Program-made: the position numbers and the translations under genes | Shown here: positions 6,600 to 58,874 of the stretch, one piece after another | Layout: each line of letters opens with the position of its first letter | How positions within the stretch are numbered: the first letter of the stretch is position 1 | Notes under the pieces: model-generated | What the model was told of the DNA's origin: nothing | The model's database searches: none | Seen by the model: only the letters and a program-made list of their open reading frames with translations | DNA from: Podarcis cretensis | Lineage: Eukaryota | DNA: 64,000 nt | Assembly (NCBI GenBank): GCA_951804945.1 | Contig: OX638150.1 | Location: 66,898,001-66,962,000, forward strand | Direction: 5' to 3'

Positions 6600-6915
6600 T
6601 GTTGAAATTGCAGTGTCCCAAGCACAGCGGAATGATGAGGAGTACGTGCCACATACTCTATATTACTTTATTTACACTTCAAAGCTGGTAGATTACAGAA
6701 AAACATCTTGCCTCTGCCGGAGCAGAGAAAGCATCCTCTCTCCTCTAAAGCACGGAGAGAACTAACTCTGAGAACAGTGAAAAACAGGAAACCAGTGTAC
6801 GTCACATCCAGTCTCCTTTCCCGTGAGAAACTCCAACAGCAATTGACTGTGGAATGTAAACACCTGTCTCGTGACAAGCACTTTCGCTGCACAGTGAAGA
6901 GAGCAGAAACCAACA
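6600..6915 (-). repeat. Copia 3' LTR
   Basis: TGTTG...CAACA termini. Minus-strand AATAAA at 6667-6672. Identical to 11315-11630 except at 2 terminal positions. Confidence 0.96.
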
Positions 6916-11314: not shown

Positions 11315-11630
11315 TGATGAAATTGCAGTGTCCCAAGCACAGCGGAATGATGAGGAGTACGTGCCACATACTCTATATTACTTTATTTACACTTCAAAGC
11401 TGGTAGATTACAGAAAAACATCTTGCCTCTGCCGGAGCAGAGAAAGCATCCTCTCTCCTCTAAAGCACGGAGAGAACTAACTCTGAGAACAGTGAAAAAC
11501 AGGAAACCAGTGTACGTCACATCCAGTCTCCTTTCCCGTGAGAAACTCCAACAGCAATTGACTGTGGAATGTAAACACCTGTCTCGTGACAAGCACTTTC
11601 GCTGCACAGTGAAGAGAGCAGAAACCAACC
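11315..11630 (-). repeat. Copia 5' LTR
   Basis: Direct repeat of 6600-6915. On the + strand it begins TGATG instead of TGTTG and ends CAACC instead of CAACA. Confidence 0.95.
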
Positions 11631-50958: not shown

Positions 50959-52125
50959 TACAGATCCTGGGTTAGATTTCAAGCCTTCTGTTTGGATTCT
51001 AATGACTTAGACTGGGGTCACTAACCCTCAGCCCAGGTGGCCTAATTTAGTCCCCAATAATTTTTTCTCTTCCACCCCTAAAAGACCCCAGACCAGAGGT
51101 AGGCAGACAGGTATCTGATGGGGATACAAATCACTCTTTTATTGGCTATCAGACAGATTGTTTGATGAATGGGGAACTACTCTCTATGGCTGACCTGCAC
51201 ACATCAGGTGAGAAGGGGCTGTGTGTCCTGTGTGTGTATGCAAAAGTGTGCATGGGAGAGGGGCGGCCATGCTCTCACCACTGACTAGCAGCCCCTGGAG
51301 AGCTGGCCAAGGATAAATGAGGCCCTTGTTGATTTAGACTGTGTTATACAGCTGTGCTTTTTCAGATGGTGGGTAAAGGACTGCCTTCACCCATTTTCAG
51401 GTGGACCTCAGTGTCACACTCCACACTTCCTGCCTGGTCTCCAGCTGAGCAAGGAAACCTCTCTTGACTGACATAAAGGCCTCCACCTCAGAAGAATAGC
51501 CAAGCGTCAGGCAATGGTGTGGGAACTGGAGAACCTGTGTTTGAGTAGCCATGCAGGGGGTAGAAGGAAGAGAAGGTGGAACTGAGTGAAAGTGACTGGG
51601 AGATGGAGGGTATTTTGGTGGGAGATGGAAGGTCTGTGGCAAAGTATTCAATGATTTCAAAGGGGGGGTTAGATATCAATTTAAAATTATGTCAGTAACT
51701 GCCAACTAACTGTGCCATTGAGTGAGGAGGCATGGCCATGCTCCAACTCCACCTGCTGCCATTTTGTGACTAGGGATCCTCTAAAATTTTCAGGCCTCTC
51801 ACGTGGCTCTGGAGGTCAAAAGCTGTACGGCAAAAAGCAAAGAAGTTTATCAAAACTATCCCTCACAACAAGAAAATCCCATGGAATAATTCTTCATTAA
51901 AAACATTTCAGTGTCTGTTGTCCCTTTTTTTCTTCCTAACATTAATCCTAAACATACTTAACTTGGCAATAATAGCCCATTCACATAGCCATGGTTGCCA
52001 TGGTGGTTTCACCACGAAAAAAAAATCAAGGGCATGTCCTTACCTGCTGTAAGCAATGGTGACAACGGGCACCTTTCTGTATCCTCCATGCCCCTCCCCA
52101 CATGGCCATTGGCAGCAAACAAAGA

Positions 52126-52189
<64 letters not shown>
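52126..52189. repeat. Compound (CA)n(GA)n microsatellite
   Basis: Direct reading. Other simple repeats: (TG)n at ~366-396, 46692-46717 and 50481-50512; (CA)n at 39095-39122. Confidence 0.95.
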
Positions 52190-52193
<4 letters not shown>

Positions 52194-52826
52194 AGTCATT
52201 AAATTCATCAGGAGATCTAAACAAAGCTCCCACATATACACCCCTCTGCACCTCTCTTTCCTTGCCGTGGCTTCAGCCCAGAAGTTGCATATTTGTATTC
52301 CTTTGGGGCAAACTGCTTTTATGGGCTTCACGGCAGGCAAAAAAAGGCAACAGGTGTTTCCTGTTCACCTTTTAAATGTCTGACAATTCTTCTAAGAATA
52401 ATGTTTCCTGTTGAAAGGTAGTGAACTTAGTGGCAACGTGCCTGGAGGCGGACTGAAGTGTGCATTAGAGAGAGTGAGGAGATGTGTGTGCATAGGGATA
52501 TATAAATGACAGAACTACTTATTCAGCTCTGCCCTTTCACATTGTTAAGGTTTCTCCAAATATATGAGGAAAGTTTCCTTATTTTGGCATCTATCAGTCT
52601 TACTTCTGCCTTGTTATCCTCTGGGATACTGGCACAGTAACAAAAAGGGTCAGCTTGAGAAAATGATTAGGGTTAATCGCCAATTTAGCCTGGGCAACAG
52701 CTCTGGCTTTCTGAGAAGATGTTCAAACAGGTAGAGCAGTCACTGGCATTCAAGGCAGGGTGAATGATTATTATGGGAGGCAGTTTGAACAGAGAGGCCT
52801 TTTTTCTAAAGGCTAATACAGATTGG

Positions 52827-53294
52827 TTGCGTGTGTAGGTCCCCAGGCCACCCCTCAAATAACTTCACACATAACACGTGATTTTAGTTTTGGTTTTTGG
52901 GCACTATTTTGGCCACAACTTTATTAAAATACAAAATCAGTGAGTGGTTGTTTAGACATTGGTTATGACTATCTGTCCCCCCGCCTGGGACAGAACTGAC
53001 ATCCCGAGGTCCGAACGGTAGCCAGTAGAAGAGAAAGTCAAACTGGGGGTCATTTGAGCTAAGCGTCGGACCCACGCCGCTCACCCCAGCAGCTCCCCGA
53101 AAGCTTGCCTGCCCGGTCCTATAACAAGGATTCCCATAACAGGGATTGGGCGGCCCTGGTCCCATAACAGGGATTGGACGAAATCATGGCAAGCCCCAGG
53201 ATTCCTTTAACGGAATTCCCTTCAGCGCAATAGGATGGGCAGGCACCGCCTGAACCCCTCCACCACCAGCATATTATAACCAATGCCTAACCGC
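52827..53294 (-). repeat. Ngaro terminal direct repeat B2 (468 bp)
   Basis: Direct repeat of 53665-54132 at an offset of 838. I found only 2 mismatches. Minus-strand AATAAA at 52920-52925. Confidence 0.92.
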
Positions 53295-53664
53295 AACCTT
53301 ACAAGTTGTGACGAATTGCTGAGTAGTAGGCAAAAACCAAATGGCACAGCCAATCACCAAATGGCAAAATTCCTACTAGGCCCCTGCTCCAAGGCAGACG
53401 ACCCCATGACAGGCAAAGCAAGGTCAACCGGAAAGAGGGCGGGCGGGTGATCCGATGCACTCTGCAAAGAGAAAGAGAAACCAGAGTGCACCAATATTTA
53501 AAGACTATGGTCCCTCCCACCCAATTTGCAACATACAATTTGCCCCAGCAACCCGGTTACCCAATCATGATGCCAGGCAACAATTATTAACCTGCCTGGC
53601 AACAAGAGGCCTGGCCTGGTGGCCCACACCGCAACACGTGCTCTCATTTATTGGAGAACACGCT
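53295..53664 (-). repeat. Ngaro A2 segment between the B repeats (putative promoter-bearing repeat; partner A1 absent)
   Basis: 370 bp between two B copies. Minus strand has CCAAT/ATTGG and GC-box-like motifs and TTTAAATA (53495-53502), followed by a pyrimidine-rich stretch. Confidence 0.7.
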
Positions 53665-54132
53665 TTGCGTGTGTAGGTCCCCAGGCCACCCCTCAAATAA
53701 CTTCACACATAACACGTAATTTTAGTTTTGGTTTTTGGGCACTATTTTGGCCACAACTTTATTAAAATACAAAATCAGTGAGTGGTTGTTTAGACATTGG
53801 TTATGACTATCTGTCCCCCCGCCTGGGACAGAACTGACATCCCGAGGTCCGAACGGTAGCCAGTAGAAGAGAAAGTCAAACTGGGGGTCATTTGAGCTAA
53901 GCGTCGGACCCACGCCGCTCACCCCAGCAGCTCCCCGAAAGCTTGCCTGCCCGGTCCTATAACAAGGATTCCCATAACAGGGATTGGGCGGCCCTGGTCC
54001 CATAACAGGGATTGGACGAAATCATGGCAAGCCCCAGGATTCCTTTAACGGAATTCCCTTCAGCGCAATAGGAGGGGCAGGCACCGCCTGAACCCCTCCA
54101 CCACCAGCATATTATAACCAATGCCTAACCGC
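53665..54132 (-). repeat. Ngaro direct repeat B1 (468 bp)
   Basis: Copy of 52827-53294, lying directly downstream of the SGNH ORF. Confidence 0.92.
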
Positions 54133-54163
54133 CACCCGAGCTTTAACGCTCGCCGCCAACCAC

Positions 54164-54735
54164 TCACAAACCCAACCAGGAACCTAATTTTTTAGCCACA
54201 GCATCCAACCAAATCATTCCCCAAATCAGAAAGGTGCACTCCATCCGCCCGGTAAAGTGCTGCCGCCTTGAAATAAATGCTGGGGTGGGGAATAACCAGC
54301 CCACCCAGCTCCAAAACCTTCTTGCACACTGCAGAGTTAATGCATATCCTGGCCTTCTCAGCGGCCTCCGGGCGGGAAACACCGTGCCAGGTTTGCCTCT
54401 GCAACAGGTGAGACCAAATATTCTCACTGAAGGTAAAAAGGCTGCCAATGCCTCCAAATCCCTTTTTGGATTGAGGTGCGCAAAGCAAGGCAATCAATAG
54501 TTGCCACATCATTTTCCCCCAGCTGCACCACTATGGCCATAGGGTGGGGAGGTCCGAGAGCAGCCGGCGACCAATCAGCGGCATAAACTCTCCCCATGAC
54601 ATTCCGCGTCTGGAAAACCATGACACTTGCATGTGCTGTGGGAGGCCGAGACACGCTCCCCTTGCAGACTGCCTCGCTCTGCTGCCAGCCCAATGAACGA
54701 TGCTGTGTCCCACTATCCAGATGTGGACCAGCGTG
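54164..54735 (-). pseudogene. Ngaro SGNH/GDSL hydrolase-like ORF, frameshifted
   Basis: Blocks spread over several frames: IWIVGHSIVHWA (block I Ser), SRRGMSW (block II), VVQLGENDV (block III GxND), YRADGVHLS (block V DxxH). Confidence 0.85.
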
Positions 54736-54789
54736 GGATCTACAAGGGTTGAAACAAACAAGCATTAGTACCAAACTCAGCATTTGTTT

Positions 54790-55830
54790 CGCACATAACC
54801 CTTGAAAGCATCAGATTTCCATGTCCCAAATCCTTGATCCTGGCAGCCGAGAAGCCCCAATGGGCCACCATAGTCGCTGCACCTATGTGAAAGGAATGAG
54901 GGGCGAAACCAGAGGCCGAGATCCCACAAGCAGAGATGGCCTTACGCATGACTTTTGTGAAGTAGTGTTGCGCAAAAGGGTGACCATTTTCAAGCATGAG
55001 TAGCGGGCCGTCCCTAGGAGGTCTCAAGGCCAAATACTTCCTTACATCCTTGACCGGGCATGGGCCCACCTCCCCAGTCGCTGGGAGGCGGACAACCTCC
55101 CCCCGACCCAGCTGGTCAGTTTTGGAGTTGCGCACTACAAGTCTCAACTCCAAAAGGGGAACGCATATATCCTGAAGGAGCAACCCATGAGAACCAGCAA
55201 CTTCTAGGATCGAGCCAGCCCCCCATGGGAACAAAAAGCCAAATATTTCTGTATCCAATAACAGGGCAAGGGCCCACCTTACCCGTGACTGGAAGCCTGA
55301 TGATGGCAACCCTGCTCACTAGGTATGACTTAGAGCTCCAGACACTTATGACAAGCTCCAAAGCAGATAAGGAAAAATCCTGAGGCAATAAGCCTCCAAA
55401 CTCTCCGCCCCGTGCTGGCTACAACACAATTTCCCCAACCCTCAGTACACCAAAATTACAATGGAATACTGAAAGACAAGTCTTAACTTGTTGCGGATAC
55501 TGCATAGGTCAAGATTGACCGGCTTCCTGCCTGCAGTCCTGTGAAGGCTGGAGTCTTTTCCAACCTTCCGAGACCCTGCGCACGGCACACTTTTAGAAGG
55601 GTCTCTGAAAAATTAAAGCTTTACTCTAGCAGGCATTGCAGCGGAGTGAATTCTGATAGATTTAACAGTGCATCCAATCTGCAGCAGGTAGGCCAATTAC
55701 TGCAGGTCCTGCTCAGAGAATGGAGGCAAGTTCCTCTGAATGGCTGGGGACTGCCAGCTAAATGCTAAGGAATCAGTCCAGGCCTTCTCATAAGACCTGA
55801 AAGCAGAAGGGGAAATGTAAGCTACTACTC
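54790..55830 (-). pseudogene. Ngaro tyrosine recombinase, decayed
   Basis: ORF 54740-55309 has RNSKTDQLGRG, CPV, FAPHSFHIGAAT and IKDLG(RW) motifs. The catalytic HxxR is mutated to HSFH. The N-terminal part is fragmentary. Confidence 0.88.
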
Positions 55831-55949
55831 CTCTTAATTATAAATTGTTGCCAAAGCGCCACGGGAGCTCCAGAAAATCCGGCTATAGCTGGGCGTCCGG
55901 AGCCCAGGATCTGAAGCTCTCCAACTGAAAACGGGATAGAGTGACAGCG

Positions 55950-57250
55950 AAAACATTAGATGATCCCGTAATAAAGCGAGCAGAAACGCAATATTACACC
56001 TTAAGCAGTGCAGCTGGAAAGCACATAAAAGGGGGCGGAGACTCTGCCAAAGCATGAGGACCATTTTGCCAGGACCCTCACACTGCCTGGTTATCAGACC
56101 AAGGCAGACCCAACGGTCCCTGTACTCCTCAGTCCAGATGTGCGCTGACACTACAATGGGGAGAACTCAAGAAAAGTTAGGTCACATGAGATAGCCTTGC
56201 CCTGCCAGGCTCAAGGCCACTGTACAGGATGATGAAGGGACCCCGGACCATGAGACCACCTGGCCGAGCAGGAATGGAAGGGGCAGCCTGGAACAACCAC
56301 CCTGCATGCCAATTTTTTAAACTGACTTAGCAATGATAGAATCTGACAAAGCAACATTTGCTATCAGAGGAAGTATTACAAGAATAACGTCCTTCACGGC
56401 AAGCAGCTTTTCCACAGGCAAGCAGAGGTATGAGCAACAATATCCAGCTAGCCCCTAAATACATTAAAGGGGGCAGTAGGAGCCACTGTCCTATCCACTG
56501 CCAACAGAACACCCAGCTCCTCAGGGAATAAAAAGGGGGCGTCCAGTAAGCCCAAGCAGGGGCTGGTGTCACACGAACCAGCCAGTGAGATAATCCAAAT
56601 AATGGTACCCCCAGTTAAACGAGTCTTGACTCGTGATGTTCAATCCAGAAAGACGCTAAAGGACTCGAGTGTTGCACAGCCTATAGCGCAACACATTGGC
56701 ATCGCCTTTTCAATGTAAGGACCATCCAATTAAAGCCCAACTAGTTATAATCTTGAGGGTGCACGGTGCAGCAGCCTAACAGCCAATTCAATATCGCATA
56801 ATGCCAACCAGGCCCACTTCCAATTTGTTGGTAAGCTCAACTGCCTGATCCAAAGATGCATATTTCACGGAACAAATTCCAGAGAGTCATTCACTGAGGT
56901 GCCTTTGGGATGCGATAAATATGGATTATATGGGGCTTTCTTAGGGACGATCCCCAAAGGGGATAAATGAAAATCAGGAATAGGAGAAGAATCAAGGGGA
57001 TCCCACCAAACGTCCCAATGAAAGCTGCTTCCTAACCTTCTTACTTGCTACCGCAGGTAGCTCTCTGACTGGCTTTTGAGTTGCTGTATTCTGAGCCACT
57101 GGTTGAAAAGCCAGAGGAATCCCAAACCTTGGGAAAACCCTTCCCACAAGCACAAAACCACTGACCCATCTAGATAACCTTTTAGCCAGGCTTTCAAGGA
57201 GGATATTTTTATGGAAATAGGGGCGAGAGGTATTGAGTTATTGCTTGCCA
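55950..57250 (-). pseudogene. Ngaro reverse transcriptase and RNase H, heavily decayed
   Basis: Manual translation of the minus strand gives PDFHLSPLGIVPKKAP, SVND, CSVKYASLDQAVEL, CDIELAVRLL, EKAMPMCCAIGCATLESFS, HYLDY (~56590-56605) and DNQAV (~56080-56095), with many stops and frameshifts. Confidence 0.82.
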
Positions 57251-57519
57251 GGCCCCGCTTGGGCAAGATGCCCTGCCTTGTGTTGCCACCATGATGTGTA
57301 AATTTACAGGGCCAACACTGGCCAGAAACCCTAAAGAAGTCCCAACAAAGCTGCCACCGGGCCAGCTTCCTGCATACCAGCTTCAGGTTCTATTGCTCAG
57401 GGAATTTCCATTTAAAATGTGGAGCTGCGCAAGTGGTCCACATGTCCCTGCGATCCTAGCGAGCTGAGGGGGTGATGGCAGCCCTGCATCTAACATTCCC
57501 ATCATAGTGAATTACCACT

Positions 57520-57585
57520 TATAGAATAATGGGGTTAGAAGGGACTCCGAGGATCATCTAGTCCACTCTCCCACAATATAATAAT

Positions 57586-57628
<43 letters not shown>

Positions 57629-58140
57629 GTAATAAACATCATCATCATCTATTTGTACCCGCCCATCTGGCTGGGCTTCCCCAGCAACAACAACAACAGT
57701 AATAAACATCATCATCATCTATTTGTACCCGCCCATCTGGCTGGGCTTCCCCAGCAACAACAACAACAGTAATAAACATCATCATCATCTATTTGTACCC
57801 GCCCATCTGGCTGGGCTTCCCCAGCCACTCTGGGCAGCTTCCAACAAAATTAAAATACAGTAATGCATCAAACATTAAAAGCTTCCCTAAACAGGGCTCC
57901 CTTAGATGTCTTCTAAAAGTCTGGTAGTAGACATCTGGTGGGAGGGTGTACCACAGGGCGGATGCCACTTCCAAGAAGGCCCTCCACCTGATTCCCTGTA
58001 ACTTGGCTTCTCACAGTGAAGGAACCACCAGTAGAGTGATGAGGGAGAGTGATGAGGGAGCATGAAGCTGTCCCATACAGGGACCAATCCTGCAACCTAG
58101 GCATTACTGGCACCATACACTGACCAGCTGAGCTATCCAG
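57520..58140 (-). mobile_element. tRNA-Ile/CR1-tail SINE split by an L2 3' fragment
   Basis: Tail at 57520-57575 and head at 58066-58140, with L2 sequence between them. Confidence 0.72.
57577..58060 (-). mobile_element. L2 LINE 3' end with a triplicated 70-bp terminus and (TTG)n tail
   Basis: Same L2 3' sequence as 46836-47064, with a 70-bp unit repeated 3 times at 57615-57824. Confidence 0.82.
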
Positions 58141-58231
58141 GATGATCCCTAAAGACCCGGAACAGCCTCACCCTGACCCCTGGAGAGGTCCAAGGTGATG
58201 TCTGAATCATCATCAGAGCCCAGGGATGATT

Positions 58232-58613
58232 TACTAGAGCATGCACCACTCTGGCAAGACAGTCCACGGGCAGGTAGAGTCTTAGCCTGTGTACCAGATG
58301 GAACTGGTAGACAGCTGCCCTGGATACAGAATTGACCTGTGCCTCTATGGACAGCTGTGAGTCCAAAATGACTCCCAGGCTGCACACCTGGTCCTTCAAG
58401 GGCACTGTTACCCCATTCAGGATCAGGGAGTCCTCCACACCAGCGCGCCCCCTGTCCCCCAAGAACAGTACTTCTGTCTTGTCAGGATTCAACCTCAATC
58501 CATTAGCCGCCATCCATCCTCCAACCGCCTCCAGGCACTCTCACAGGACCTTCACTGCCTTCACTGTTTCCAATTTAAAAGAGAGGTAGAGCTGGGTATC
58601 ATCTGCATATTGA
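58232..58613 (-). mobile_element. L2 LINE ORF2 reverse transcriptase fragment
   Basis: QYADDTQLYLSF at ~58580-58612 and WMAANGLRLNPDKTEVL...SLGVILDSQL...ARVVHALV. Confidence 0.9.
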
Positions 58614-58874
58614 TATCCTCCTCCTCCTCCTCCTCCTTCTCCTTTTGGTGATCCTGACCTGAACTTGGTGCCATTCTTCCCTGGACTGAACAAAGTAGGT
58701 AGGAACCTCTAGCTCCTTCAAAATGCAACAACCATAGTTCAGCATTCTTTTTCAACATGAGACAGAATGTTATGGTTTCTAAGATCACCTTCATCTGATC
58801 ATGTAAATGAATTTATATCAGCTCAAGGACAGGAACAACCAGGTACATAAAAAATCACTGAAATGCTCCATTGC

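Follow-up and report, generated by a model that had tools for sequence, protein, structure and literature searches.

A long-dead Ngaro core, recently inserted, with ends like those of protein-coding families in Podarcis cretensis

The window (the whole 64,000-nucleotide stretch of Podarcis cretensis DNA that we analyzed) contains a Ngaro retrotransposon that is a young insertion of a long-dead core. The same dead core occurs in the genome with two types of A/B terminal repeats, which are about 73% alike, and each end type is 98–100% identical to the ends of a different protein-coding Ngaro family. From sequence comparisons, at least four end replacements are seen. We think it quite probable that this is a non-autonomous Ngaro lineage that is copied by the Gag, reverse transcriptase (RT), and recombinase of helper elements and that acquires the helpers' ends when the RT switches templates; we infer both the mobilization in trans and the template switching from DNA sequence. 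Below, copies with the same ends as the window copy are called type 1 (group 1a, which includes the window copy, and the older group 1b), and those with the other ends are called type 2 (groups 2a and 2b and the older group 2c).

Terminal repeats of the window copy

The window copy lies on the minus strand, as do the parts of the element described below unless noted. It has two 468-bp B repeats, B2 (52827 to 53294) and B1 (53665 to 54132), which lie 370 bp apart and mismatch at two positions only (52880/53718 and 53236/54074). B2 forms the 3' end of the element, as set by an empty insertion site in four of four other runs and by the ends of sister copies. B1 is 98.9–99.4% identical to the B repeat of the donor family H1 (copies L071 and L072). 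The ratio of observed to expected CpG is 0.42–0.69 for the 250-bp bins across 53001 to 54250 and 0–0.32 for the bins across 51001 to 53000. These values reproduce the coordinates and counts of the original prediction, which was made from the window alone and which described CpG-rich 468-bp repeats with two differences around a 370-bp spacer.

The spacer has the length that was claimed, but just 217 bp of it (A2; 53448 to 53664) are the A repeat, because only those 217 bp recur at the 5' ends of the sisters. The other 153 bp (53295 to 53447), between A2 and B2, are unique, and the sisters' spacer is 4 bp longer. A2 is like A1 at the 5' ends of the sisters and of the donor copy L072 (99%). The layout of A1...B1-A2-B2 is present in this family: B1-A2-B2 is in the window and A1 is in the sisters, but the window copy has secondarily lost A1. 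The proposal would have been wrong if segment A never lay at the 5' end of related elements, and A1 does lie there in the sisters. A 30-mer from the spacer has 130 matches in the genome with at most one mismatch; most of these are probably solo A-B units, and some may belong to other families. Genome-wide, there are six type-1 B|A junctions, of which five are at ordinary 3' ends and one is in an old fragment (L131), and none of the six is in a permuted element (A-B-A-body-B). The junction between B1 and A2 (53659 to 53671, no strand assigned) is a 5-bp inverted repeat around AAA, with a core that is identical in three Ngaro families, and is a putative recombinase site.

A1 and about 1.5 kb of the window copy were lost at a secondary 5' break (58234 to 58235, no strand assigned), where the core is joined to a fragment of a LINE reverse transcriptase (58235 to 58620) with a few bases in common at the join. 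We did not find A1 in the window or in the next 9 kb upstream of the element, and the original upstream flank, which is known from other runs, has no match in the assembly.

The second B could in principle be an assembly duplication, as the original prediction had allowed, and short-read contigs cannot span the window copy. However, the same layout is present at 4 other group-1a loci, in 29 copies from groups 2a and 2b, and in intact partner families, and the two B copies differ at two sites, so we regard an assembly error as almost certainly not the explanation.

Coding remnants

We placed the coding remnants of the window copy by aligning it, with frameshifts allowed, to an intact relative that is also from this genome. 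In the direction of the element, these are the C-terminal part of gag, with a CCCH finger and two shared stops (57294 to 57512); RT-RNase H, in which 21 breaks were scored, one of them a 59-codon deletion near 56220 (55844 to 57227); the tyrosine recombinase or YR, with stops, frameshifts, and HSFH (54780 to 55940); and an SGNH hydrolase with four frameshifts, which is a mosaic of two donors (54167 to 54728). Upstream of the gag remnant, a part of the dead core (57521 to 58234) contains pieces of dispersed host repeats and a microsatellite within what was gag; it is also found in sisters and has very high contig depth. Within this core-borne host repeat are three 70-bp tandem copies (57612 to 57828), and the length of this array differs among sisters.

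A Pfam scan of eight open fragments from the window copy gave no relevant hits, and the domain assignments rest on intact relatives instead. In the relatives' ORFs, RVT_1 scores above its cutoff and Phage_integrase mostly below, and the match of Lipase_GDSL_2 to the intact relative's SGNH is below the curated cutoff.

The original prediction noted many stops and frameshifts in RT, RNase H, YR, and SGNH, and we scored 31 breaks in these regions: stops, frameshifts, and the one 59-codon deletion. It also noted CpG-type changes at two motifs. HSFR to HSFH (in 18 of 18 group-1a copies) is such a change, but YLDD to YLDY (in 17 of 18) is a G>T transversion.

The structure matches that of a Ngaro element, as judged from the sequence: there are split direct repeats, with A1 in the sisters, and RT-RNase H is followed by YR on the same strand. 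An SGNH hydrolase ORF of the amphibian type is present after YR. The pol remnant runs straight into YR, and three pol ORFs of relatives have no hit to a methyltransferase family with E up to 0.01; the absence of a methyltransferase separates Ngaro from PAT elements. We rejected a DIRS1-like identity because the terminal repeats are direct, not inverted, and because there is no methyltransferase hit.

The decay was inherited

A search of the same genome identified sister copies that are 97–98% identical to the window copy over its whole body. A 30-mer that spans the junction of the 59-codon RNase H deletion has 68 matches in the genome (a control has none), and we classed all 68. We aligned 31 of about 70 dead-core copies and compared their breaks. 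Of the 31 breaks in the window copy, 30 recur in half or more of the informative ones among 17 group-1a sisters; 18 recur in at least six of the eight group-2 copies that were tested (out of 44). Just one break position coincides with a break in protein-coding relatives, in one of five relatives. None of the other dead-core copies has a long element ORF. A search for copies with the same inactivating mutations had been suggested as a check on mobilization in trans, and such copies clearly exist.

The body of the window copy differs from those of 16 sisters by 0.7–2.1% substitutions. Across 17 copies, private substitutions are about as frequent in the body (239 of 57,278 sites, or 0.42%) as in B1 (38 of 7,789, or 0.49%; Fisher p = 0.35), and because 10 of the 17 copies are the query or were chosen for the likeness of their B repeats, the figure for B is if anything too low. 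The window copy itself has 12 private changes in 3,384 body positions, which is no higher than in B. The divergence between its B1 and B2 is 0.21% per site (95% interval 0.03–0.77%), in line with the body. Furthermore, the insertion site is empty in four of four other runs, from three organisms: contigs run past 52826 into the same non-element sequence. (This count is without run X1, in which the flanking contig ends at 52804; the contigs from X7 and X10 extend beyond the junction with unaligned letters.) Pieces that span the breaks were detected in runs of four organisms. Given the shared breaks, the equal rate of private change, and the empty site, the window copy is young from end to end and inherited its decay. 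The original contrast between fresh termini and a decayed body holds for the repeats, which are nearly identical, but set against its own family, the body shows no extra decay.

The core appears to evolve without coding constraint. Between distant copies of the core, the differences at the three codon positions number 23/23/34 and 21/25/23; between protein-coding families, they number 66/57/223 and 67/69/247. A slight excess at third positions in some of the core comparisons counts against this. The cores of groups 1a and 2a are 8.1% apart, and with the 18 common breaks, this indicates that the core was dead before these two groups split.

Fate of copies after insertion

Among assessable copies, which exclude those truncated at the 3' end, the complete B-A-B arrangement becomes rarer with age, as measured by the mean distance to the nearest neighbor. 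It is found in 27 of 29 copies in group 2a (0.29%), 2 of 4 in group 2b (0.82%), 5 of 19 in group 1a (0.87%), 0 of 8 in group 2c (2.4%), and 0 of 9 in group 1b (3.2%). This loss with age argues for deletion between the repeats after insertion, so that two B repeats would be the original state, which the window copy has kept.

These results also bear on another reading of the window copy, namely that a fresh A-B unit was added to an old, decayed copy, or that the repeats of such a copy were homogenized in place. Solo A-B units do exist, and one variant is carried by both B1 and B2 of the window copy and by none of the 34 further B copies listed. Such a variant fits both repeats having been copied from one template, and conversion after insertion would look alike. 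But the site is empty in all four runs, the breaks are inherited, private change in the body is not above that in B, and B-A-B is nearly universal in the youngest group and missing from the two oldest. We consider this reading, which the original prediction had offered as its second option (an old copy into which an A-B unit recently re-integrated), to be refuted at this locus, with hardly any probability left to it.

Two further loci are noted here. A group-1a copy (L034 and L042; G000:C11:3870927-3884491) has its A2 spacer about 13.5 kb away from B, probably because of an insertion. Elsewhere in the window, near-identical direct repeats of about 315 bp (6600 to 6914 and 11315 to 11629) lie 4,715 apart and are probably the LTRs of a young LTR element.

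Two kinds of ends and their partner families

Type-1 ends, including those of the window copy, are 99% identical to those of L071 and L072. The RT regions of these two elements are only about 65% like that of the core, and L072 has an open frame of 598 codons there. Both are damaged: L071 is without its 5' part, and in L072, gag, YR, and SGNH are all broken and there is only one B. We did not find a fully intact type-1 helper in the assembly. In a search with the body of L072, among the 40 candidates that were scored out of 476, the only strong match was L072 itself (100%), and other families were at most 80% identical.

Type-2 ends are 98–100% identical to those of L075, L076, and L077. L076 is intact, with open frames for gag (526 amino acids), pol (650), YR (331), and SGNH (187), and with B1 identical to B2 and A1 identical to A2. 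The type-2 branch of the dead core outnumbers the sampled intact helper about ten to one. An intact partner with the same A/B repeats, which the original prediction had suggested looking for, is therefore present for type 2 (L076), but for type 1 there are only the damaged L071 and L072.

Several young Ngaro families appear, from their sequences, to coexist in this genome. A third family (L078, L079, and L126 to L129) was not found as an end donor in the 68 copies. Across many contigs, there are dozens of stop-free YR frames of 329–340 codons that are 50–70% like the window fragment. We also noted a Ngaro (L082; G000:C9:60529501-60539500) that an internal deletion has left about 3.6 kb long and that has A (84%) and B (74%) repeats of another type. 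Its YR-SGNH region is 82% like that of the window copy, but we did not identify it as the source of the older tail.

Switch points

We located the joins between core and donor sequence by sliding identity and informative sites. In group 1a, including the window copy, the recent switch lies within 54345 to 54377, with the older tail upstream and donor H1 downstream: 104 of 104 informative sites are of the 1b type before 54377, and 15 of 15 are of the donor type after 54345. An older switch is found at 55195 to 55210. The match to the core ends at 55204, and a donor-like match starts at 55202; group 1b leaves the core at 55203 for an H1-like YR. This older join is out of register. The dead core continues to about codon 256 of YR and is followed by the H1-like YR from about codon 190, so that about 207 bp of coding sequence is repeated.

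In type 2, the switch of group 2a is at the start of SGNH (363/0 and then 3/70 informative sites), and that of group 2b is inside YR (134/0 and then 9/292). Both groups derive from 2c, an older group with a tail that is about 87% like that of the present donor. After its switch, group 2a matches 2b, and not the sampled intact helper, at three of three sites, and it shares a stop in SGNH with the one 2b copy that was aligned. Given these similarities, the tail of 2a may have come from another non-autonomous copy or from an unsampled helper variant. At the other end of the element, the boundary of the 5' exchange is precisely the final base of the A repeat.

Phylogenetic trees agree with repeated replacement, which the original prediction did not anticipate. 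In the core tree (FastTree), 1a is nested in 1b, and 2a and 2b are nested separately in 2c. The tree of B repeats disagrees with the core tree in that the donors fall within two clades of dependent copies, that of 1a and that of 2a/2b. (The trees include 12 of 30 group-2a copies, and L087 was dropped from the core tree because of insertions.)

Ectopic recombination or gene conversion on the chromosome, with a helper or a solo A-B unit as partner, might instead have produced the chimeric ends, and retrotransposition would only have amplified the results. Homologous register is kept at three of the switches, the roughly 130 matches to the spacer represent many potential donors, and repeat-mediated deletion is common among these copies. 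The oldest type-1 switch, with its 207-bp repetition, does not fit, and the partners are only about 57–87% alike around the switch regions, which is low for host recombination. One copy (L103:455-2535; G000:C6:84850601-84860600) also points the other way: after B1, it has A and about 1.2 kb of its own 5' core, and then the last B. The duplicated segment, which replaces the normal spacer, is 1,453 bp long and 100% identical, and the arrangement looks like an aberrant strand transfer or RT jump. We judge a chromosomal origin of the chimeras to be unlikely and favor switching during reverse transcription.

Dispersal and insertion sites

The copies are independent, recent insertions with precise ends. 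Among the 51 upstream flanks that we compared, no two are alike, and on this basis we rejected segmental duplication as the source of the copies. We examined the target wherever the 5' end could be scored, at 59 elements (50 with the dead core and 9 from partner families): the flank ends in AA in 53 of 59 cases and in AT in 6 of 59, and no target duplication is apparent. Together, the shared breaks, the 68 copies, the unlike flanks, and the partner families with the same A/B repeats support the earlier suggestion of a non-autonomous lineage that is mobilized in trans.

Clean ends without target duplication fit insertion by a recombinase whether or not RNA was involved, and there is no intron loss available as proof of an RNA step. 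The copies might therefore have spread at the DNA level, by the action of the helper recombinase on excised circles. This would leave the exact exchange of A1 and A2 and the identity of B1 and B2 in new copies unexplained, and new copies keep the internal B|A junction. We consider spread without an RNA step to be very improbable.

A model for end replacement

Under the reading that we prefer, copying by a helper with template switching, RNA from the dead core would be packaged together with helper RNA. A single jump of the RT into the helper's YR-SGNH region would bring in B1-A2-B2, and A1 would be rebuilt from the newly gained A2, so that both ends would be renewed in one event. B1 and B2 would be made identical in every cycle, and the helper recombinase would integrate the product at an AA or AT target without duplication. 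Later, host recombination between B1 and B2 and between A1 and A2 would give rise to single-B copies and solo A-B units. The model builds on that for DIRS-1, whose RT works in trans experimentally, according to the part of that report that we draw on (PMC7192593). Recombination linked to RT is likewise described for LTR elements in the portion used of another source (PMC6894440). Three families have an identical recombinase core, so a swap of ends is not needed for integration as such, and the swaps may be a neutral by-product.

We lean toward the view that this full-length Ngaro fossil, with about 18 shared breaks and insertions of host repeats, is a persistent parasite that passes between helper families, and that type 2 may be moving now. 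If so, one RT jump near the 3' end replaces the promoter, both ends, and the recombination site together, and the split-repeat layout would let any dead relative be revived and retooled.

Discussion

These natural recombinants can serve as genetic markers for the Ngaro cycle, for which we found no experimental study in the literature searched; in the parts of the sources used, only DIRS-1 has been tested. The YR-SGNH tail, B, and A to its last base travel together, and this joint travel supports the rebuilding of A1 from the internal A2. The copies also illustrate a problem with dating. Repeat identity and coding decay can point to opposite ages for a single copy, so dating from protein decay or from a family consensus misleads.

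The closest relative in structure is DIRS-53_XT from Xenopus, a hydrolase-bearing Ngaro, for which the source, as far as we draw on it, states that copies often lose repeats (PMC9210276). It has the same A1...B1-A2-B2 layout, with gag, RT/RNase H, YR, and SGNH in the same order and no methyltransferase, but the same part of that source describes intact or individually degenerate copies and not a family with shared breaks and exchanged ends (PMC9210276).

Dependent or reduced split-repeat elements and solo A-B units are also described elsewhere, in the portions of the literature used here: TOC1 is called a non-autonomous YR element (PMC9940879), SIRE corresponds to A2-B2 of VIPER (PMC6681497), and Cafeteria has an ORF1-deleted Ngaro as well as solo AB units (PMC8547959). 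Unlike the dead core, the SIRE and Cafeteria forms are deletion derivatives of one family, and those portions describe no change of helper. The degenerate R2 of Bacillus rossius resembles our case in being a full-length dead element in many copies, but its authors favor unequal recombination in the rDNA (PMC4370867, in part), whereas the copies here are dispersed and have unique flanks.

As for end exchange in Ngaro or DIRS elements, we found no report in the literature searched; beyond that literature, non-autonomous squamate families may be described in closed-access work, in the first papers on Ngaro, in Repbase, or in supplements. In plants, according to work attributed to Du et al. 2010, the soybean element SNRE reportedly stays matched to its autonomous partner by LTR swapping. 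This swapping is the closest precedent, in that a dependent element exchanges terminal repeats with an autonomous partner. SNRE belongs to an LTR/integrase system, however, whereas the element here is a YR element with split repeats, and here there are two donor families (with ends that are about 73% alike), a full-length dead core of 6–7 kb, and at least four events. SNRE is named as non-autonomous in the part used of one source (PMC3701649).

Similarly, in the non-autonomous pararetroviruses of grasses, region-specific recombination keeps non-coding sequences like those of the helper, and partnerships change, as described in the part of the source used here (PMC5491270). Those are viruses, and the regions that are exchanged are intergenic, unlike the ends of a chromosomal YR retrotransposon. 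The lineage described here would extend helper tracking by end exchange from plant LTR elements to tyrosine-recombinase retrotransposons in one vertebrate, whose genome has both a very young branch of the lineage and, for type-2 ends, an intact partner.
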